Positions 17,541 through 31,995 of a stretch of DNA of 64,000 bases are shown here, piece after piece (positions within the stretch are counted from its first letter, which is position 1; each line of letters begins with the position of its first letter). Location: assembly GCA_050008535.1 (NCBI GenBank), contig JBEKML010000001.1:2246-66245 (forward strand), given 5' to 3'. The DNA is from Minisyncoccia bacterium (GTDB lineage: Bacteria; Patescibacteriota; Minisyncoccia; UBA6257; 2-01-FULL-56-20). The notes under the pieces were generated by a model that was not told the DNA's origin, searched no databases, and saw only the letters and a program-made list of their open reading frames with translations. The translations under genes and the position numbers were made by a program.

Positions 17541-18866
17541 ATGCCCAAGAACATTCGCACGCCGAAGGTGGTCGCAGATCCTATTTACGGCATCGTGGAT
17601 ATCCGGCCGGTGCTTCCGATGGTGGAAACCCCGGCGTTCCAGGCGCTCGGCGACAAGCGGCAGCTCGGTATGGCGTATCTTACCTTCCCGTCGGCCACGC
17701 ACACGCGGAAGGCGCATTCCTTGGGCGCCTATCATGCGACGCGCGAACTTGCCGACCGGTGGATCAAATTAGGATTCATCAAAAAGCGCGAGGGCGATGC
17801 GCTTGCGGGCTACGCGCTCTACCACGACATCGGCCATCCGGCGTTTTCCCACGTGACGGAACCCTTTTGCGCGATGCCTGCGGGGATCCGCGGCATGAGC
17901 GCAAATAGCGCCTTGAGTTTGGCCGTTATTCGGGAGCACAAAAAAGAGATCAAGGCCTGTGGTATTGATTTTGCGCTGCTTTGCGCGCTCGCGAGCCACG
18001 AACATCCGCTCCATGTGGCCGTAAGCGACAAAAATCTCGGCACGGAAAAATTGGATTATTTGGAGCGCGACGGAGCGGTCACCATTTTGAGCCGTCCGCC
18101 CGGCCTCTCCTATCTCCGCGAACACATCTATTTCATAAACGGCAAACTGGCCGCGGACGAAAAAGTGGTTGACAACGCCATTGAGGCGCAGAATTTCTAC
18201 CTCAAAATGTACAAAAACGTATATCTGCGGAAGGCGTCGGTCATCGCCCAGCGCATGCTCCAGAAAATGGTCCATCACCTTATCCTCGCGGGAGAGATCG
18301 CGCCGGACGATCTCTTACAACTCACCGATTCGGAGCTCTTGGGCGTCATACGCCTTTCAAAAGATCATCTTGTGAACACGCTGTATGATCTTTTAAAACG
18401 CCGCAATCTTTTCCGCGAGGCGATCGTTGTAAGGCCGGAGCGATTCATGGATATTGAGACGAAAACGGAAAAAGGGGTGGCTATCTTCGGCGCCGCAGAA
18501 CGCACGATGGCACGGCTTATAAACTCCCCGACATTCCGGGTTAAAAACCAAAGCGGTCTTGAAGCGGCGGAGGCGGAAATCGCAAAGATCGCCGGAATTC
18601 CGCCCAAATTCGTCCTCATCGCCCCCATAGCGACGCCGGAACGCTTTGATGCCCGTGATATCATGATCTATCAAGACAACGCAAAAAAATTGGTGTCCCT
18701 GCGGAAGCAATATCCGGCGCATTTCAAGAATCTCGAAGAGATCGCGCAAAGCTATCTCGCTTTCCGCGTCTGCACCACGGAAAAATATCGAAAAGCGCTT
18801 TCCGCCCCGCGCACCGCGCGGAAAATATTCAAATTTTTGACGGCTCACGCCACTTCCGCCTGGTAG
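17541..18866 (+). CDS. HD-domain phosphohydrolase, dGTPase/dNTP triphosphohydrolase-like.
   Basis: HTRKAHSLGAYH ... YHDIGHPAFSH ... DKLDYLERD (HD motif plus downstream Asp); 441 aa. Confidence 0.65.
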   Translation: MPKNIRTPKVVADPIYGIVDIRPVLPMVETPAFQALGDKRQLGMAYLTFPSATHTRKAHSLGAYHATRELADRWIKLGFIKKREGDALAGYALYHDIGHPAFSHVTEPFCAMPAGIRGMSANSALSLAVIREHKKEIKACGIDFALLCALASHEHPLHVAVSDKNLGTEKLDYLERDGAVTILSRPPGLSYLREHIYFINGKLAADEKVVDNAIEAQNFYLKMYKNVYLRKASVIAQRMLQKMVHHLILAGEIAPDDLLQLTDSELLGVIRLSKDHLVNTLYDLLKRRNLFREAIVVRPERFMDIETKTEKGVAIFGAAERTMARLINSPTFRVKNQSGLEAAEAEIAKIAGIPPKFVLIAPIATPERFDARDIMIYQDNAKKLVSLRKQYPAHFKNLEEIAQSYLAFRVCTTEKYRKALSAPRTARKIFKFLTAHATSAW

Positions 18867-20635
18867 CACTGTTCGCAGTAGACGATTTCCGATTGATCCG
18901 GCGAATAGGTCGTTCGAAACGCGTGTGGGCACCGCACCGACTCATGAAAATGTGAAGTCGTATTGACATAGGCTCCGTTTGCTGATTTTGCTCCCTCGCA
19001 TTGGCACGCTCGATCATAAAACTTAATAGGATTCCTTTGGCGTAAGAGATAATAGTGGCGGCAATTATAGCACGACCGAGGAAGAGGCAGTTTCAGTTTC
19101 CGATAAAACGCCAATTCTTCTTTGGTGAACTTGAACGCGGTCGTGCACTGCTCATTGCAACTACCTCCATGTTCGCAGCCGATAGTTTCTTCCAGTGCAG
19201 AGTCCGAAACATCTTTTATGTCGTCCGGCAGATCCGCCGCGTTGTGTTGAATGTTGTAATCCTTTTTCTCGGAATCCCGCCATTTATATCCTCTTGCAAC
19301 TGCCTCCTTTTTAGTGAGCGGAAAATACTTTTGTGCGATAGTTTCATTGTAGGTGTAGGCGGACATCTCCGGAGGGAAAAACTCGCCATATTTATAGGTT
19401 TTTCCTTGTCTGTCGATATAGGGCATCGCGTTCATATGTGCCACGATTTTCGGCACGAGCCCTTCGTATTCCTCTTTCGTATATTGCTTGTTTAAAATAC
19501 AGTACTGTTTATTCCGAAGCGCCATGCAGCCGAAAAGGTCAGAGTTGCGTGCGAGAATGTGCCAGCAGTATTGGAGGTTAAATGCGTCGCTCCAGGTGTC
19601 GTAGCAAAATTTAACATCGTTCTGATTATTGCCCGACCCCATACACTCGTAAATTCTTAGGGCCTTCGCTCCCCACATGGTGAAGTCATAAGAATCCTTT
19701 GTTCCATTAATGAAAAGAAAATGGCAATATTTCGAATCTTCCGCACCGCCGACTTCATAGCTTGAAAACACATTCTTGGAATTGAATATATAGTCGCCGG
19801 ACACATCCGCGTTTTGTAATCCCTCCATAAACTTGCGGGGATAACCGATATGAACCTCCCTTGCCCGACGAGCGAGCTGCTGGATCGTTTTGTACGAACC
19901 CGTATTCCATTCGGCAATTTTATTGGAATATTCTTCTTTGGTGTACGGCTGATTGAAGATATAGTACTGCTTGTTGCGCAGATTGATGCACCCCAAACAA
20001 TTGGAACAGCCTCTGAGATTCTTGGAAAACCACACATCCACGCACTCATTACAGTTATTGGAAAAGAATGTCCGGAAACACTTGAATAAATTTGTGCTCA
20101 TGTAGCAAAACTCGCACAGATCCGAGATGTAGAGATCCAGGCAGTTCTTGCTCCTTTCCAAGACAGTAGAATAGGCGCAATCCTCGTCGTAGTCGGAGTT
20201 GAAAAGGAGGTAGCAATTTTTAAGATAGGAGCCGATGTTGCAATAATCACTGTTTACTAAAGTTGAATGCATCGTCTGCGGCCCAAAATCCGGCACGGAA
20301 CGAAAAAGTTCGTTGAGTTGTTCAAAGAAAGGACGGGAGAAATCTATTTCTTTGCCATACATCAGGGGATCCCACTTGTCAGACCACCAGCAGGGCTGAC
20401 AGTATACCGGCCTCCCTGCATTCTCTGGAAATATCGAGATAACCTGTTTATTGCACAAGTCACAACCACGCCGATGGAGGGAACGCTCATTAAGAAAAAC
20501 CATCCTCCTTTTAAGGCGGCAGTCCGGACACCAGGTCGGTGGCGGAACCTTGATATTTCCGTAGAACGCAAAATCTTCCTGTTCGATGACAAAAGACGAT
20601 TTGCAGTTCTGGCATGTTTTCGTCTGGGAATCCAT
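18845..20635 (-). CDS. Cysteine-rich repeat protein, paralog B (unknown function; putative metal or disulfide-rich). The start is taken at ATG 20635 (MDSQTKTCQNCKSSF...).
   Basis: 596 aa with >40 Cys. N-terminal zinc-ribbon-like CxNC...FxIExEDFxFYxxIKVPPPTxCPxCR repeats in mirrored form at the C-terminus (LPLPRSCYNCRHY). A central ~15-aa CxNCxxC repeat ladder is present. The last 12 residues are identical to paralog A. Confidence 0.6.
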   Translation of the reverse strand: MDSQTKTCQNCKSSFVIEQEDFAFYGNIKVPPPTWCPDCRLKRRMVFLNERSLHRRGCDLCNKQVISIFPENAGRPVYCQPCWWSDKWDPLMYGKEIDFSRPFFEQLNELFRSVPDFGPQTMHSTLVNSDYCNIGSYLKNCYLLFNSDYDEDCAYSTVLERSKNCLDLYISDLCEFCYMSTNLFKCFRTFFSNNCNECVDVWFSKNLRGCSNCLGCINLRNKQYYIFNQPYTKEEYSNKIAEWNTGSYKTIQQLARRAREVHIGYPRKFMEGLQNADVSGDYIFNSKNVFSSYEVGGAEDSKYCHFLFINGTKDSYDFTMWGAKALRIYECMGSGNNQNDVKFCYDTWSDAFNLQYCWHILARNSDLFGCMALRNKQYCILNKQYTKEEYEGLVPKIVAHMNAMPYIDRQGKTYKYGEFFPPEMSAYTYNETIAQKYFPLTKKEAVARGYKWRDSEKKDYNIQHNAADLPDDIKDVSDSALEETIGCEHGGSCNEQCTTAFKFTKEELAFYRKLKLPLPRSCYNCRHYYLLRQRNPIKFYDRACQCEGAKSANGAYVNTTSHFHESVRCPHAFRTTYSPDQSEIVYCEQCYQAEVA

Positions 20636-20648
20636 ATGCCTCTTTTTA

Positions 20649-22427
20649 TCACGCCACTTCCGCCTGGTAGCACTGTTCGCAATAGACAGTCCTGGGAAGG
20701 TCGGGAGTGTAGGGCGTTTCGAATTCATTGGGACAGTGGCCGCTGCCGTGAAAATGGCCCGCTGTATTTTTATAAACCGCATTTTCCGATCCCAAACCGG
20801 CGCATCCGCATTTCCCATGCCAAAGGTTCAACGGATTCCTTCGGCGCAATCTCTGGTAATGGCGACAGTTGGGGCATAATCGGGGCAAGGGCAGGTTCAT
20901 TCTCCGATAGAACTGCAGTTCCTGGGGAATGATGCGGAATGCGGTCGCGCATTGCTCGCTGCATTTTCCATCATGCTCGCACATTATGATTTCCTTCAAA
21001 ATGCCGTCATCCACTCCCCGTATGTTTTCGGGGAGCTTCTCCGGCAAAAGCGTTGCCGAGTAGTTCTTTTCCGCCAGATTTTTCCATAGGTATCCAGCCT
21101 TCTTTGCTTCGTCGCTCGTCAACGGAAAATATTCTTGTGCGATGGTTTCGTTGTAGGCAAAGGGGGAAATCTCAGTGGGCAGAAATTCGCCATATCCATA
21201 CTGTCTTCCTGCGCTACCAACGTAAGGATGGATCCGCACATACTCTTCGATCTTTGGAGCAAGCGTTTCATATTCTTCCTTGGAATACTGGGTGTTCAGA
21301 ATGCAATATGATTTTTGGCGAAGCCCTATGCATCCGAAACAATGCTCGCAACCGTGACAACTGTGGGAATAACGGCAATCCGAAGAAGCGTATACCGTTA
21401 TCGTCCCCAGATTATTTTGCCCCACGTTTGAATCAATGTTTTCATAACCAAAATTGTTTTTCCACTGTCCCATGCTGTCATATGACTCTTTCAGATCCGC
21501 GCTCCACCCTATAAACTTTGCATCCTCCACATTCCCCATCAGATCAAAACAAAAGCGGGCGTTCTTTGAGTTGTAGATGTTGTCTCCGGTGCAATTGACC
21601 GATGCTATTATATTCCCATACCGGCGTATTGCTTTATCAAAGATCTCATCCTGCACCCGCGCGGCGATGCGCGAGAGCGACGAACGATTTTCCAAATCGA
21701 ATTCCTTGAGCTTCTTTTCGTATTCTTCTTTTGAATACTGCTCGTTGAATAGGCAATGCGATTTGCCGACCAGGTTCGCGCATCCGAAGCAATCCGAGCA
21801 ATTGCGGCAGTTCAGAAGAAAATATGAATCCCGGCATGTTTCGCAGTTCGTGCAGAAAAGAAGATGGTAAGAGCCGGAACAGTTCACGCACTCATAGCAC
21901 AGTTCTGATTCGTGGAGGATATAGCAATCCTCGCTGTCCCGCGATTTCCATGCCCGGGCATAAGCGACGTTTTCACAAAAACCGGTTCCAAAAACCAAAT
22001 AGCAGTTTTTATTATCGCTGACAAAATTCGCATAATCACTGTTTACGGAATTGATATTGGAAAGCGCCTGAAGCGGAACCTTCCGGAACAGATCCCCGAA
22101 TTGTTCAAAAAATGGTTTTTCAAAATCATACTTCTGCCCGAAATCCAACGGATTCCATCGGTCCGACCACCAACACTCTCGGCAATAGGAAATTACCTTT
22201 GATTCCGGAGCATACATGGAAATGATGGATTTTCCGCATAGTCCGCACACGGCTTGGTATAAGCTCCTTTCGTTGCGCCACGTCATTCTCCGCACCATGC
22301 GGCACCGGGGGCAGAATGTCGGCGGCGGAACTTTTATCTTCGTATAGAAATCAAAATCTTCGGGTTCAATCGTGAATTGTGTTTTGCAATTCTTACATAC
22401 CCGATTTTCGGAATTCATGTCTCTCAT
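20649..22427 (-). CDS. Cysteine-rich repeat protein, paralog A (unknown function).
   Basis: 592 aa with the same architecture as paralog B, about 50-55% identity by eye, and an identical C-terminus (VYCEQCYQAEVA). The two 3'-terminal DNA segments are near-identical. Confidence 0.6.
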   Translation of the reverse strand: MRDMNSENRVCKNCKTQFTIEPEDFDFYTKIKVPPPTFCPRCRMVRRMTWRNERSLYQAVCGLCGKSIISMYAPESKVISYCRECWWSDRWNPLDFGQKYDFEKPFFEQFGDLFRKVPLQALSNINSVNSDYANFVSDNKNCYLVFGTGFCENVAYARAWKSRDSEDCYILHESELCYECVNCSGSYHLLFCTNCETCRDSYFLLNCRNCSDCFGCANLVGKSHCLFNEQYSKEEYEKKLKEFDLENRSSLSRIAARVQDEIFDKAIRRYGNIIASVNCTGDNIYNSKNARFCFDLMGNVEDAKFIGWSADLKESYDSMGQWKNNFGYENIDSNVGQNNLGTITVYASSDCRYSHSCHGCEHCFGCIGLRQKSYCILNTQYSKEEYETLAPKIEEYVRIHPYVGSAGRQYGYGEFLPTEISPFAYNETIAQEYFPLTSDEAKKAGYLWKNLAEKNYSATLLPEKLPENIRGVDDGILKEIIMCEHDGKCSEQCATAFRIIPQELQFYRRMNLPLPRLCPNCRHYQRLRRRNPLNLWHGKCGCAGLGSENAVYKNTAGHFHGSGHCPNEFETPYTPDLPRTVYCEQCYQAEVA

Positions 22428-23750: not shown

Positions 23751-24017
23751 CTACCGACGCTTATACCGAGCGGATAAAATAATGACTGTGAGCAATGCGA
23801 GAGATTCTAAAATTGTAAGTGTCATAAAAACAACATCCTTTTCGTGTATGGCATACGCGACCAGAATGAGCGCGCCAAAAAGCCAAATAAACCACGCGGG
23901 GATATCGATACCGGTAGAATCTTTAACTTTGAGCAAGTGGATGATCTGTGGCGCGTAAGCCGATACAAAAACAATAGAAGCGATCAATCCAAGACTTTGA
24001 AAAACTGCGTCATTCAT
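23751..24017 (-). CDS. PQ-loop small membrane protein (bacterial SemiSWEET-like sugar transporter).
   Basis: 88 aa with three TM helices and a PQ motif (YAPQIIHLL) in TM1. Confidence 0.55.
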   Translation of the reverse strand: MNDAVFQSLGLIASIVFVSAYAPQIIHLLKVKDSTGIDIPAWFIWLFGALILVAYAIHEKDVVFMTLTILESLALLTVIILSARYKRR

Positions 24018-25173: not shown

Positions 25174-28100
25174 TTATTCCTTAGCGGCAAGGGTGGTCTT
25201 TTCTGCATCAGCTTCAAGTTCATGGAGCACCTCGCGGCCCGATTCCCTATCCCCCGCAGGGATGAGACGGCCGATGATCACGTTTTCTTTGAGCCCGCGG
25301 AGTTTGTCCACTTTTGCCTCAATTGCGGCCTTCACGAGCACGCGCGCGGTATCCTGGAACGATGCCGCAGAAAGGAAGCTCTCAGCCGAAAGCGCGATGC
25401 GCGTGATCCCAAGGAGCACCTCGTCCGCTTTCGCAGGCTGCCCGCCCTGTTTTTTGATCTCGCGGTTCACCTCCAAAAACTTCGCCTTCTCGACGATCTC
25501 GCCCATCACAAAGTCCGGTGCATCGCCCCCGTCGCGGATCTTCACGCGCGAGAACATCTGCCGCACGATCATTTCAATGTGTTTATTGTTGATCGAGGCG
25601 CCCTCCGAGAGATAGATCTTTTGCACTTCGTTCACGATATAACGGGCCACCGCAAGCGCGCCCCTGTGCTCGTATAACTCATGGATATCCAGGTTCCCCT
25701 CGGAAAGCAGGTCGCCCTTCCGGATCTTGTCCCCCGCTTTCGCATAAAGCACGGTGCTGCGCGGGACGGCGATCTCCTGGGCCTTTGTTTTCTTGTTCTC
25801 GGAAATAAGACGGAGCACTTTCTGGGAACCTCTTTCCTCCACTTTCTCCACCGATCCATCAAAAGGCGCGAGCACGGCGCGGCCCTTCGGCGAGCGCATC
25901 TCGAAAATTTCTTCCACGCGCGGCAAACCGTGCGTAATGTCCGCGCCCGCCACGCCTCCCGCGTGGAACGTGCGCATCGTAAGCTGCGTTCCCGGTTCCC
26001 CGATGGACTGCGCCGCAAGCACTCCTGCCGCAGCGCCGATCTTCACCGGTTCGTTTACGCCAAGATCATATCCGTAACACTTGGCGCAAATACCGTAAAA
26101 TGTCCTGCAGGTGATGGGCGACCGCACGGTAACCGCATCCAGCTTGGATTGTTCGATAAGTTCCGCCGCCGCTTTGTCTATGATCTCTCCGGCCCGCGCA
26201 ACAACTTTGTGCCCGATCCGGATATCATCAAGCGCCGCGCGGGAGAACAAACGGGAAGAAAAGCTCTGGTTGAATTCCTTGCCGTCGGCGCGCAAAATCT
26301 CGATCCCCTCTTTCGCCCTGCAATCTTCTTCGCGGACCGTGAGGTCCTGGGCCACATCCACCAAGCGCCGCGTCAGGTAGCCGGCCTGCGCCGTCTTCAA
26401 AGCGGTGTCGGTGGTTCCTTTCCGCGCGCCGTGCGTAGAAATGAAGTATTCCAAAACCGAGAGCCCTTCTTTAAGCGACGACCGCACGGGGAGCTCGATG
26501 GTTTCTCCTTTCGGGTTCTGCACGAGCCCTTTCATGCCCATCATCTGGATCGGCTGGGACCATGAACCGCGCGAGCCGGAATCCACCATCTGATAGATAG
26601 CATTGTCCACCGACAAAACGACCGAGACGAGCTTCGCAAGCTCGCCCTTCGCCCTGTCCCACACACTGATTACGCGCGCCTTGCGCTCAGAGGACGTAAG
26701 AAGCCCCTCGCGGTATTGTTCCCGTATCAAACCCACCTCTTCGTCGGCCTTCCGCATGATCTCGCCTTTTTCGGTAGGAATAATAAGGTCGGCCATTGCC
26801 CATGTGATGCCCGAGACCGTTGCCATCTCAAAGCCAAGCAGTTTCACGCCGTCCAAAATCTCGCGCGCCGTATCGAGCCCGTGCACGTCAAGGATCTTCT
26901 CGATGATCTTTTTGAGTTTTTTGCTTGTCACCGTCTCGTTCACGAACTCAACTGTCCCGTGAAGTACTTCATTGAAGATCAAGCGGCCGAGCGTGGTATC
27001 GATGCCCTTCACGCGGATCGCCGAATGGAGCGTGACCACGTTATTTTCGTAGGCAAGAAGCGCCTCTTCGACGCCGAGCATCGGTTTTGCGGCATCCCCT
27101 TTCGAGGACGGGCGGGTGAGATAATAAACGCCGAGCACCATATCTTTTGTGGGAGCGGCAATAAGCTCGCCGGTTGCGGGCTTCAAAAGCCCCTTCCCTG
27201 CCGCCATGATCTCTACGGCTTCCTTTTGCGCAAAATCGGAAAGCGGAAGATGAACCGCCATCTGGTCGCCGTCAAAGTCGGCATTGAACGCGGAACAGAC
27301 GAGCGCGGGGATCTTTATCGCAAGCCCCTCAACAAGAAGCGGCTTGAAGGCCTGCACGGAGAGCCGGTGCAGGGTCGGCGCGCGGTTCAAAAGCACGCGT
27401 TTGCCCTTAATGATCTCTTCCAGAATTCCCAACACTTCCGGCGTATGTTCTTCAATATAGCGCGACGCGCTCCGGATGTTGTGCGCAAGGCCGCGCTTGA
27501 TGATCTCGCCAATCACGAACGGGCGGAAAAGCTCCAGCGCCATCCGCTTCGGCAAACCACATTCGTCAATTTTTAAATTGGGACCCACGACAATGACCGA
27601 CCGGCCGGAATAATCCACGCGCTTCCCGAGCAAGTTCTGGCGGAAACGGCCCTGCTTCCCTTTCAACATGTCGGCCAGGGAACGCAAAGGACGCCGCTGC
27701 GCCGAGAGCTGCTGGGTGCCGAAGCGGGCGGAATTATCAATTAGGGCGTCCACCGCTTCTTGAAGCATGCGCTTCTCGTTGCGGATAATGACGTCCGGCG
27801 CCTTGATCTCCAGGAGCTTTTTCAAGCGGTTGTTGCGGTTGATCACGCGGCGGTAAAGGTCGTTCAGGTCGGAAGTTGCGTACCGTCCGCCGTCCAGGGC
27901 CACCATGGGCCGAAGGTCCGGCGGGAGGACCGGAAGCACCGTCATCACCATCCATTCCGGACGGCTGCCGTTCCGGATCATTGATTTGAGCATCTTCAGG
28001 CGCCGCAGGAGCTTGCTTTGCGCAAGAGGGTCCTTTGCGTTTTCCAGTTGCGCCTCAACGCCTTGCACTTCCTTCCGAAGGTCCAATTTTTCCAAAATTT

Positions 28101-31100
28101 GTTTTACGGCCTCGGCGCCGCTCCCCGCCTTGAAAATACTCCCGAACCTCCGCGAGAGCGAGAAATATTCGTTCTCCGAAAGGATCTGGCCAACGTGAAG
28201 ATTTTCCAAATATTCTTTCGTCGTGTCGGCGGCCTCCAAGATCTCTCCTTTTACCATCTTATCCTTATTGCCGACGGTCTTCAGCTTGCCCTTGAGCTCG
28301 CGCTCAAGGTCCGCAAGCGCAACTTTGCGGTTTTCCTCTTTTATCTCCGTGATGATGTAGGCCGAGTAATAAATGACGCGCTCAAGCTTCTGCGAAGAAA
28401 CGTCAAGGGCGAGCGCAAGGCGCGAAGGGATGCTCTTCAAGAACCAGATATGCGAGACAGGAGCGGCAAGCGCGATGTGGCCGATGCGCTCGCGCCGCAC
28501 CGCCGCGCGCGTGACCTCCACGCCGCACTTATCGCAGATCACGCCCTTGTAGCGGATCCGGCGATACTTGCCGCAATAGCACTCATAGTCCTTCGTAGGG
28601 CCGAAGATGCGTTCGGAGAACAAGCCGTCCTTCTCGGGGCGCTGCGTCCGATAATTGATGGTCTCCGGTTTTATCACCTCCCCATGGGACCATTTCAAAA
28701 TATCTTCCGACGACGCGACGCTGATCTTCAATGCGGAGAAATCATCTTTACGATCGGTTTCTGTCTCATACAGCGGCTGGATATTGAATCCAAGCGATTT
28801 AAGTTCGTTCACAAGCACATTGAAGGACGCCGGAATGTTCGGCTCCTTGATCTGCTCGCTGCGTATGATGGACTCGTACGCCGCTGCGCGGCCCAGGACG
28901 TCGTCGGACTTGATCGTGAGCATTTCCTGGAGCGTGTGGCGCGCGCCGTAGCCTTCAAGGGCCCACACCTCCATTTCGCCGAACCGTTGGCCGCCGAACT
29001 GCGCCTTCCCACCCAGCGGCTGCTGGGTGATCAAAGAGTACGGACCGATGGAACGCATGTGCGCCTTGTCTTCCACAAGATGGTTCAGCTTCATCATGTA
29101 CACCTGCCCCACGGTCACCCGGCTTTCAAAAGGTTCGCCGGTGCGGCCGTCAAAGAGCTTCACTTTGCCGTCCTCGGGCAGTCCCGCCTTCGCGAGTTCC
29201 TCGCGGATCTCCGCTTCCGTCGCCGAGTCCAGTCCCGGCGTGATCGCGCGGTATCCCAACTTTGAAGCCGCCCACCCCAAGTGGGTCTCCAGGATCTGGC
29301 CGAGGTTCATGCGCGAGATGACGCCCAACGGGTTCAAAACGATGTCCACCGGCGTGCCGTCCTCCAAATAGGGCATGTCTTCCGCCGCGCGCACCTGCGA
29401 GATGACGCCCTTGTTCCCGTGGCGCCCGGCAAGCTTGTCGCCCGACTGGACCTTCCGGAGTTCCGCGATCTCCACCTGAATGCGGCGGATGATCCCCGGC
29501 TCCAGCTTGTCGCCGCGCTCCCGGTCAAAGATCTTCACGTTCACCACGCGGCCCAGTTTCCCGTGCGGAAGGATAAGCGAGGTATCTTTCACGTCCCGCG
29601 CCTTCTCGCCGAAGATCGCACGGAGCAGGCGCTCTTCCGACGTCAGTTCCGATTCGCCCTTCGGCGAAATTTTCCCGACCAAAATGTCGCCGGCTTTGAC
29701 CTCGGCGCCGATGCGGATGATCCCCTCCTCGTCAAGATTTTTCAATTTGTCTTCCGAAACATTGGGGATATCGTAGGTGGTGACTTCCGGCCCTAATTTC
29801 GTGTCGCGTACGTCGCAATCATAATTATCAATATGGATGGAGGTGAAAAGGTCGTCGCGGACCACGCGTTCGGAAAGAACGATGGCATCCTCAAAATTCG
29901 CGCCTTCCCACGAGACGAAGGCAACAAGAAGATTCTGGCCCAGGGCGAGCACTCCGTGATCGATCGACGGACCGTCAGCGAGAATCTCTCCTTTTGCGAC
30001 CGCCTGCCCCGTAACGACGAGCGGTTTCTGCGAAATGCACGTGAATTGGTTGGAGCGTTTGAACTTTTCAAGAACGTAGTTTTTGGTCACCCTGCCATAC
30101 TTCACCTTAAGATGGTTCCCGTCGGCCTCAAGCACGGTCCCTTTGTCCTCGGCGACGATCACATAGCCCGAATCAAGCGCCACCCGCTCTTCCTCCCCCG
30201 TCGAAACATAGGGGGCGTCGGGCTTCACGGACACCACGGCCTGCCGTTGCATGTTCGAACCCATGAGCGCGCGGTTTGCATCGTCGTGCTGGAGGAAGGG
30301 AATAAGCGCGGTCGCAACCGAGATGAACTCGTTCGGAGCGACGTCGATAAGGTCTATTTCTTCCGGCGTGCAGGTTCCCGGCTCGCCTTTAATGCGCGCT
30401 TCCACGATCGGTCCTTTCAAGCGGTCTCCCTCGCGCGGGGTACCGGCATGGGTGATCTTGTATTTTTCTTCTTCCGAAGCATCGAACCAAACGATCTCGT
30501 TCGTAACGCGGCCGTCTTTTACCTTTGCATACGGCGCCTCCAAAAATCCAAAATCGTTGATGCGCGTAAAGCTTGCAAGATAATTGATAAGGCCTATGTT
30601 CGATCCCTCCGGCGTTTGGATCGGGCAGATACGGCCGTAGTGCGAGCGATGGACGTCGCGCACCTCAAAGCTCGCGCGTTCGCGCGTGAGGCCGCCGGGG
30701 CCGAGCGCCGAAATCCTCCGCTTATGCTCCAATTCCGCAAGCGGGTTCACCTGGTCCATGAACTGCGAAAGCTGCGAAGAAGCGAAAAACTCCTTGATGA
30801 CCGCGGCGATCGGACGGAAGTTCACGAGCTGCGACGGCATCAAATGATCTTTATCTTCCGTGGACATCCGGTCCTGGATGATCCTCCGCAAGCGCGCGAG
30901 CCCGATCCGGAGGCGGCCCTGCAAAAGCTCTCCCACGGTCTTCAGGCGGCGGTTGCCCAAGTGGTCGATGTCATCCTCTTCGGCCTCGGCATTGTTATTC
31001 AAAGAGATGATCTCTTTTACGATCCCAATGAGGTCCTCGGCATCCAAAAGTTTGTTGTTCTTCTTGCGATCCAGATCCAGGCGCTGGTTCATCTTGTAGC

Positions 31101-31905
31101 GGCCGACCTCCGAGAGGTCATAGCGATCAGGGCGATGGAACATCGCGTCAATGAGGCTTTTTGCCGTTTCCGCGCCCGCAGGGTCGCCCGGCCGCAAGCG
31201 GCGGTAGATCTCGATATACGACTCGGTCGTGTCTTTTGCGACGTCTTTTTTGAACGTCGCTTCGATGAATTTCACCGGGCCATTATCCATCTTCTCGAAT
31301 GCGGCCCCGATCTTTTCGTTGTCCAACCCGAATATACGAAGGATGTCCGTCACCGGCACTTTCCTCCGGCGGTCGATCTTCACGCCGATTTCGCCGTTCA
31401 CGTCGGTTTCGAATTCAAGCCAGGCGCCGCGCGAAGGAATGATCTTCGCGCCGAAAAGCTGCCGGCCGCGATAGGGCACCGCCGTGAAATACACGCCGGC
31501 GGAACGCACGAGCTGTGAAACCACCACGCGCTCAACGCCGTTCACGATGAACGTTCCGCGGCTTGTCATGATCGGGAAATCGCCGAAGTACACCTCTTGC
31601 TCTTCCGTCCTCCCCGTCCGCTTGTTCACCAGTTTCAAAGTGCACCGCAAGGGTGCTTCATACGTCGCTTCTTTGTACCGCGCCGTCGCCTCGTCATATT
31701 TCGGTTCGTCGAAACGATAGTTGGTAAAGGAAAGTTCGAACTCCTTGCCCGTGTGATCGCGGACCGGCGAAATTTCCACAAGGAGCTCCTGCAGCCCTTT
31801 ACCCAAAAACCACTGATACGACTTCAGTTGCGCTTCATTCAAATTGAATGGCGCAATAAGGGATTTCGATTTCGAAAAGTCTTTTATTTTGGAAAATTTT
31901 GCCAT
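25174..31905 (-). CDS. rpoBC: DNA-directed RNA polymerase beta-beta' fusion (rpoB and rpoC in one continuous frame). The start is taken at ATG 31905 ([10 protein letters not shown]...).
   Basis: N-terminal half is RpoB (rifampicin-region and GEMEVWALE-like motifs). The RpoB C-terminal end ...[24 protein letters not shown] runs without a stop into the RpoC N-terminus ...[40 protein letters not shown] (zinc finger), through NADFDGDQM to the C-terminus. Total 2243 aa. Confidence 0.85.
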
Positions 31906-31995
31906 CAAAATAAAGTTTTTTATAATGAAAAAGTTTGCTCCCCTCCAACGCACAAAAAACGGCTCCCTTCTCTTTTTTCAAGAAGTCCGTTCTAA

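Follow-up and report, generated by a model that had tools for sequence, protein, structure and literature searches.

Parcubacteria (Paceibacteria) combine exceptional diversity with small genomes (about 1 Mb or less) and belong to the most poorly understood bacteria. A survey of 2,918 Patescibacteria genomes counted 5,713 VirD4-like type IV coupling proteins (T4CPs), only 148 of them near virB4, and these proteins have been described as possibly 'exapted for other functions' (PMC12102498). Here we analyze a 64,000-nucleotide (nt) stretch of contig JBEKML010000001.1 of a Minisyncoccia bacterium (assembly GCA_050008535.1, positions 2,246 to 66,245 of the forward strand; hereafter the window) and two adjacent genes in it, A and B, which belong to a very large, unnamed family of Cys-rich proteins restricted to Parcubacteria/Paceibacteria. 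In genomic setting, the family can be compared with T4CP substrates and adaptors, such as VirD4-recruited effectors and relaxosome accessory proteins. Like these, family genes often, though not at every locus, cluster beside VirD4/TraD-like ATPase genes, the family shares a small domain with one type of ATPase, and its paralogs combine constant, docking-type modules with a variable remainder. Unlike T4CP effectors, the family has no recognised translocation-signal, toxin or enzymatic domain, and the pair in the window is not linked to a T4CP gene; in contrast to T4CP systems, the ATPases concerned are orphan, away from virB4 (PMC12102498), and below curated T4CP cut-offs.

At the level of domains, the family end-modules resemble zf_Tbcl (PF13451), zf_Tbcl_2 (PF23477) and TIGR04272, for which we know of no function. 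The end-modules share the knuckle patterns of this group, CxxC..F.[FI]...[DE]..FY...P..C..CR and CxxC-x17-CxxC with ..P....[VI]YC..C, with weak, recurrent matches at these positions. However, modules of this type fill only ~30% of a family protein, and those known so far occur as small proteins or as C-terminal tails rather than in a 590-amino-acid (aa) protein with a duplicated, Cys-laddered core. The core bears a weak likeness to left-handed beta-helix (LbH) proteins, namely the spruce budworm antifreeze protein (PDB 1m8n; 15-residue Cys-rich coils), LbH acyltransferases, gamma-carbonic anhydrases and curli CsgA, in a region where the family model is only moderately confident. Unlike the antifreeze and LbH proteins, the family lacks both a hexapeptide Pfam match and a signal peptide, which makes disulfides unlikely, and its Cys lattice has a period of 3 and resembles metal knuckles. 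The building blocks, treble-clef and ribbon zinc fingers and a Cys-laddered beta-solenoid-like repeat, are of known kinds; the combination, the family size, the gene arrays and the T4CP association are not described in the searched literature and databases, and a literature search for the family found no description.

Both genes of the pair are present as open reading frames (ORFs), adjacent and on the same strand, as the initial annotation had them:

Gene A, 20649-22427, minus strand: ORF of 592 aa with 40 Cys; stop codon at 20649-20651.
Gene B, 18845-20635, minus strand: ORF of 596 aa with 36 Cys; paralog of gene A.

The Cys counts fall short of the more than 40 per protein first reported, and the description of the genes as tandem paralogs holds, with 44% identity over the full length (BLASTP, 9e-176). 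In gene A, an alternative start, M4 at 22418, matches the family consensus N-terminus. The preferred start of gene B (MDSQTK) lies 13 nt past the gene A stop, with an AAGAGG ribosome-binding site ahead of it; the longest ORF, reaching to 20818, would overlap gene A by 170 nt and add 61 residues that occur in no homolog, and gene B is called at 596 aa on the identical contig L081. The 3.8 kb holding the pair are 100% identical in three independent metagenome assemblies, on which public gene calls give 522 aa for gene A and, depending on the contig, either 505 aa or 596 aa for gene B. Groundwater samples ERZ27249969, ERZ27250006 and ERZ27250144 contain the identical contig. Because the DNA is 100% identical, the shorter calls are gene-caller choices, not variants. 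The 522-aa call of gene A (P0001; L080-L082), which gene A matches at 100%, begins at Met71 and thereby loses the conserved N-terminal treble-clef finger. Furthermore, gene A is 55-66% identical to hundreds of full-length homologs, and both genes keep 62 of the 63 columns that are conserved at ≥90%. With one deviation each in these columns and with DNA identical across assemblies, pseudogenisation of either gene, raised at the outset as a possible objection, is ruled out. A and B are intact, anciently diverged paralogs of a large unnamed family, and the pair in the window is an ordinary member of it.

The family is large and taxonomically coherent. Of 8,000 scored candidates, more than 7,235 reach significance; every one of these is annotated as 'hypothetical', lacks a precomputed Pfam domain and belongs to Liptonbacteria, Nomurabacteria, Kaiserbacteria, Paceibacterota or Minisyncoccia. 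In a HMMER scan of 1.84 billion cluster representatives (50% identity), 4,899 clusters match at E<=1e-3 and 2,185 at E<=1e-30, the family representatives being nearly all 550-600 aa long. At least 580 relatives are found in species-representative genomes, essentially all of Parcubacteria-type lineages, and a scan of viral contigs yielded no family relatives. Two loci with other labels, L038 (JAMPXW010000002.1, labelled Burkholderiales) and L065 (CAYZAZ010000094.1, labelled Gammaproteobacteria), are typical Parcubacteria loci; in L038, the family genes, a T4CP-like ATPase, DnaJ and a ~200-aa membrane protein are ordered as in Nomurabacteria loci. Both are probably mis-binned or mislabelled.

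The protein architecture was derived from an alignment of A, B and 61 homologs (alignment A1, 63 sequences), sub-regions of which were compared profile to profile (hhalign). The layout is pseudo-symmetric: a zinc end-module, two Cys-laddered, solenoid-like halves each with a cap, an aromatic linker, and a second zinc end-module. On gene A, the parts are located as follows:

N-terminal treble-clef knuckles, residues 11-42, 22302-22397, minus strand: C11, C14, C39 and C42.
CxxC-x17-CxxC ribbon, residues 61-85, 22173-22247, minus strand: C61, C64, C82 and C85, followed by a WWSD.W motif.
Solenoid half 1 and cap 1, residues 136-240, 21708-22022, minus strand: 15-residue CxxCxxC units; cap residues C207, C210, C213 and C216.
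Solenoid half 2 and cap 2, residues 271-392, 21252-21617, minus strand: cap residues C357, C366 and C375.
Conserved aromatic/acidic linker, residues 393-477, 20997-21251, minus strand: YGEF.P.E.SPFAYNETIAQEYFPLT; predicted local distance difference test (pLDDT) 90-97.
C-terminal zinc module, residues 478-592, 20652-20996, minus strand: homologous to the N-terminal module.

The N-terminal zinc module spans residues 1-100 of gene A. Its treble clef has the core F.IE.EDF.FY..I.VPPPT.CP.CR..RR and four Cys that are invariant in the 63 sequences, and it is modelled as a hairpin plus helix with pLDDT >90. The complete ribbon that follows is retained in only ~22% of close homologs and is present in both A and B, with the CxxC-x17-CxxC spacing in each (C58, C61, C79 and C82 in B). 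The C-terminal module of gene A contains C483, H485, C489, C493, C518, C521 and H523, and further C540, C542, H558, H560, C565, C583 and C586, with invariant Cys/His among them; its copy of the ribbon has the first knuckle replaced (C565 ... C583-x2-C586). The end-modules mirror each other, as the initial annotation had proposed, with an hhalign probability of 98.4%. They also carry the zf_Tbcl motif: two CxxC knuckles flank the core in A, in B and in the consensus, and the C-terminal copy is homologous. In small proteins of Methanosarcina mazei, a CxxC-x17-CxxC module binds zinc, as determined by inductively coupled plasma mass spectrometry (PMC12704099), and zinc is, by analogy only, the likeliest metal of the knuckles in this family.

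The two central halves (~120-262 and 263-400) are homologous to each other (hhalign probability 99.8%, E 2e-29), and each closes with a cap, FGC..L..K.YC[IL].N.QY.KEEY, plus a helix. Specifically, the motif reads FGC.NL..K..C.FN.QY.KEEY in cap 1 and FGCIGLR.K.YCILN.QYSKEEYE in cap 2 of gene A; the motif first noticed twice per gene is thus found as ..GC.NL..K.YC[IL].N.QY[ST]KEEYE, in four copies in all. The proposed ladder of ~15-residue Cys repeats is real for three CxxCxxC units of gene A, residues 177-191, 192-206 and 207-221 (CYECVNCSGSYHLLF, CTNCETCRDSYFLLN and CRNCSDCFGCANLVG, respectively). Family-wide, the central Cys-Cys spacings are nearly all multiples of 3, which are enriched 2-5x, other lags occurring at 0.05-0.5x the shuffled expectation. 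Among the 63 close homologs, about 25 Cys/His positions are conserved at ≥90%, including 16 Cys and one His that are invariant, and these have knuckle-type spacings; most of the other ladder Cys are poorly conserved (C180 38%, C192 6%, C195 60%), and the number of Cys per protein ranges from 28 to 41. The zinc modules, caps and linker are constant across 157 members, and the solenoid bodies (136-205 and 271-355) and intervening helices are variable. In the linker, residues 393-440 (YGEFFP.E.SPFAYNETIAQEYFPLT) have low column entropy; residues 393-477 gave no family match.

No signal peptide, transmembrane or hydrophobic segment was found (maximum Kyte-Doolittle 19-residue window <1.6), and the family proteins are soluble; a secreted, disulfide-bonded protein was rejected for lack of a signal peptide. 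The end-modules are basic (isoelectric point (pI) 8-9) and the center is acidic (pI ~5), with a family median pI of 6.3. AlphaFold2, run with the alignment, gave a mean pLDDT of 83.9 and a predicted TM-score (pTM) of 0.85; the end-modules, caps and linker exceed 90, and the Cys-richest, most variable parts reach 60-75.

The initial statement that the proteins fit no known family stands, as there is no curated Pfam, NCBIfam or PDB match. Scans of A and B against Pfam, NCBIfam, PHROGs and PADLOC gave nothing above curated thresholds, the PHROGs matches being noise and the PADLOC-DB defence components giving none. Below threshold, zf_Tbcl, zf_Tbcl_2 and TIGR04272 match exactly at the end-modules: PF13451 in 21 of the 63 homologs (E 9e-4 to 1), and PF23477 and TIGR04272 at gene A residues 564-589. 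Scanning all 63 aligned members added only noise (for example Med15_N). PDB searches with a single protein and with the family profile gave nothing, the sole sequence match being ferredoxin 1clf (E = 9.4), and a Foldseek search of the model against PDB gave nothing significant (best E 0.81). There is no Hexapep match in the 63 members at E<=1. The Fer4 profile and the CxxCxxCxxxCP motif are absent, the motif here being CxxCxxC(xxC). No translocation-signal domain (BID, XVIPCD) was detected, apart from one noise-level Bep_C_terminal match (E 0.15) in 1 of the 63 members. An HUH-relaxase reading of H558-x-H560 was also rejected: the His lie inside a Cys/His knuckle cluster, and neither model nor searches hint at an HUH fold.

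The family genes occur in arrays, and these arrays often lie directly beside T4CP-like ATPase genes. In a forward test, we clustered the flanking ORFs of 79 family loci. At least two family copies are present in 45 of the 79, with up to 8 in 16 kb, and Patescibacteria bacterium AH-259-L05 has at least 15 copies over 26 kb, many with overlaps of 1-4 nt, in an array that ends at a T4CP-like gene. Arrays are same-strand, often overlapping (translationally coupled) sets of 2 to at least 15 deep paralogs. The commonest neighbor is a TraG/TrwB/VirD4/TraD-like ATPase (PF10412, PF12696), found within 7 kb in 26 of the 79 loci and usually adjacent on the same strand with small gaps; all NCBIfam T4CP matches of these ATPases are below cut-off. 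In a reverse test, six homologs of the long ATPase were selected solely by the length of their contigs, and four of the six loci have family genes within 10 kb (6, 10, 1 and 8 copies), directly adjacent in three. The ATPases form part of a conserved same-strand module, which begins with a sigma70_r4+HARE-HTH protein, continues with a DUF8128-type membrane protein (~460 aa) and a ~175-aa protein, and closes with a short (~490 aa) and a long (550-860 aa) T4CP-like ATPase, with family arrays directly before, after or between the two ATPases. The family-T4CP linkage is statistically strong but incomplete.

The two partners also share a domain. In the long ATPase, the ATPase domain precedes a ribbon, CSxCGKxTxVPFxPxxGRPVYCKxC (PF23477), and then a disordered tail with an LGIEF motif; this ribbon is present in 13 of 37 neighboring T4CP-like proteins. 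A hidden Markov model (HMM) of the ATPase ribbon matches the N- and C-terminal ribbons of the family, with independent E values of 1.3e-6 in B and of 2.5e-4 and 1.5e-3 in A, and 47 of 157 family members match at independent E<0.01.

Several further features of these loci were observed. The conserved Parcubacteria module with the two ATPases is seen at L089 (3988-11842) and also at L024, L025, L031 and L012, usually with efp on the opposite strand. Nomurabacteria-type loci (L019, L030, L037, L038, L045 and L049) repeatedly show the order T4CP-like ATPase, DnaJ, ~200-aa multi-pass membrane protein, with a family gene before the latter in some cases. In L090, DnaK lies between the array and the long T4CP, and a CutA1 gene stands beside the family in 6 loci.

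We tentatively propose that family members act as adaptors or cargo of a coupling-type ATPase machinery. In such a mechanism, the conserved Cys/His residues would bind several zinc ions, by analogy with known knuckles, and hold the protein as a rigid scaffold; each paralog would show a different solenoid surface as a putative binding face and dock through its constant zinc modules. The family would then be a repertoire of interchangeable adaptors, or cargo, for the ATPase, and the ATPase machinery would probably move DNA or protein across a membrane in a host-dependent lifestyle. A bolder extension, which we regard as on the unlikely side, is that family members are the missing clients of the orphan VirD4-like ATPases of Parcubacteria, recruited by the shared ribbon and either exported to the host cell or used for capturing and handing over host DNA or proteins.

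Several observations weigh against an ATPase-linked role. T4CP linkage is lacking at 53 of the 79 family loci and at 2 of the 6 T4CP loci. In the 64 kb analyzed, the pair is accompanied by neither a T4CP-like gene nor a DUF8128-type membrane protein, a sigma/HARE-HTH protein or ComEC, and close relatives of gene A lie among unrelated housekeeping genes. With a mean identity of 74%, versus 69% for DnaK, the short T4CP-like ATPase matches DnaK in conservation and may be a housekeeping gene whose surroundings merely tolerate arrays. As to the shared domain type, the end-module matches stay below the curated cut-offs: against the PF13451 gathering threshold of 24 bits, B scores 19.6 bits and A has no match, and against the PF23477 and TIGR04272 cut-offs of 27 and 36 bits, A scores 21.6 and 22.9 and B 14.3 and 12.8. 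The T4CP link could be positional only, the arrays piling up in a recombination-tolerant part of the chromosome and the proteins being cytoplasmic zinc-finger binders of nucleic acids or proteins, for example RNA/DNA chaperones or regulators. The unlinked loci, the absence of a T4CP near the window pair and the closest relatives of gene A, the housekeeping-level conservation of the short T4CP and the basic zinc end-modules all fit this explanation, which we consider doubtful. Against it, the linkage in both tests is far above chance for about two T4CP genes per ~1 Mb, the adjacency is same-strand with small gaps, the CxxC-x17-CxxC ribbon is common to both partners, and the linkage recurs in several Parcubacteria candidate phyla. 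In a DNA-cargo version of the adaptor-or-cargo proposal, the zinc modules would bind incoming or outgoing DNA handled by ComEC and T4CP-like translocases during DNA uptake or salvage. ComEC is the gene directly after family genes in L011, L091 and L092 and occurs in L003 and L062 as well, the T4CP-like neighbors have TrwB/T4SS DNA-binding domains (T4SS, type IV secretion system), and the window pair lies between tmk and an HD-domain gene; however, ComEC adjacency is confined to a few loci, the proteins are acidic overall, they match no known DNA-binding fold, and the tmk/HD linkage does not recur (see below), and we judge this version unlikely.

Two further explanations start from the protein itself. 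The Cys ladder, with CxxCxxC units and CxxCxxCxxC in cap 1, might bind iron-sulfur (Fe-S) clusters or many metal ions in metal storage, buffering or redox chemistry. The 28-41 Cys per protein, the three consecutive CxxCxxC units of A with the strict period-3 lattice, the CutA1 neighbor in 6 loci, and the low AlphaFold2 confidence and scant secondary structure at ~185-225, as for a metal-dependent fold, speak for this; but the ladder Cys are mostly poorly conserved, the conserved ones have zinc-knuckle spacing, no Fer4 or radical-SAM match was found, and storage would leave 15 deeply diverged paralogs with variable surfaces unexplained, which makes such a role quite improbable. Filament or cytoskeletal subunits, in which beta-solenoids would polymerise head-to-tail via the end-modules and the arrays would supply components of a hetero-polymer, appear very improbable: the solenoid-like core with its curli and beta-helix structural neighbors, the homology of the two end-modules and the translational coupling of the arrays agree with them, whereas genomes differ in copy number, from 1 to at least 15, arrays have no fixed composition, and variable surfaces are atypical for polymer interfaces. 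The adaptor-or-cargo proposal remains the one that we favor, at the tentative level stated.

The initial annotation had noted that the last 12 residues and the last ~40 nt of the two genes are identical. The protein identity holds, and the nucleotide identity is shorter, extending over 33 nt with the stop codon counted, or 39 nt if one mismatch is allowed:

Tract at the gene A 3' end, 20649-20681, minus strand: 33 nt identical to the gene B 3' end; encodes CEQCYQAEVA plus stop.
Tract at the gene B 3' end, 18845-18877, minus strand: 33 nt identical to the gene A 3' end; lies partly beneath the 3' end of the HD-domain gene.

Outside the tail, only 44% of the residues identical between A and B use the same codon, so that 12 identical codons running have P ~5e-5. 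Of the two origins first suggested, recent duplication is ruled out: the overall A-B identity is low, A and B fall into different clusters, and each is 52-55% identical to genes of other species. The duplication is ancient because each gene is nearer to other-species genes than to its partner, and because array paralogs are as diverged as members from different genomes (mean identity 42%, range 28-56%, within loci versus 43% between genomes). The second origin survives in a limited form, since a sporadic, short tract of gene conversion accounts best for the 33-nt tails. A nucleotide-identical 3' tail occurs in only 1 of 147 other within-locus pairs, and other pairs with 13-16 identical terminal residues share just 9 identical terminal nucleotides; a conserved nucleotide element or family-wide feature is ruled out by this count. 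The sole other such pair (L068, 6265-9706) has an identical tail of 36 nt, which suggests that the conserved C-terminal zinc knuckle occasionally undergoes gene conversion over short tracts. The HD-domain gene (17541-18866, plus strand) converges on gene B, and the 3' ends overlap by 22 nt; owing to this overlap, part of the 33-nt tract also encodes the C-terminus of the HD protein on the other strand.

On the minus strand of the window, tmk is followed by A and then B, and the convergent HD-domain gene, which has PF19276 (HD_assoc_2) on an identical contig, overlaps the gene B 3' end. The pair may be an array of two genes that became detached, and it is probably transcribed together with tmk, which lies upstream. 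The window does show the adjacency to nucleotide-metabolism genes that was pointed out initially, but in none of 79 other loci do tmk and the HD gene adjoin a family member, and a functional link to them is not supported. Elsewhere in the window, a single 2,259-aa ORF (25174-31953, minus strand) encodes fused RNA polymerase beta and beta' subunits, found on the identical contig L082 as a single 2,243-aa product with Rpb2 and Rpb1 Pfam domains. A gene for an 88-aa PQ-loop membrane protein (23751-24017, minus strand) lies between ssb and rplK, in a string that is otherwise ribosomal and replicative (rpoBC, rpsF, ssb, PQ-loop, rplK, tmk).

No Pfam or NCBIfam model exists for the family and gene callers often truncate its members, so a definition would improve the annotation of thousands of genomes. 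For T4SS-independent VirD4-like coupling proteins (PMC12102498), the linkage and the shared ribbon give a concrete candidate partner. If family members were indeed the client set of these ATPases, this would be an undescribed type of T4CP-dependent host-interaction system, taking up at least 26 kb of a ~1 Mb genome. Because at least 15 genes (>26 kb) are spent on it in genomes of ~1 Mb, the family is probably central to the biology of some Parcubacteria.

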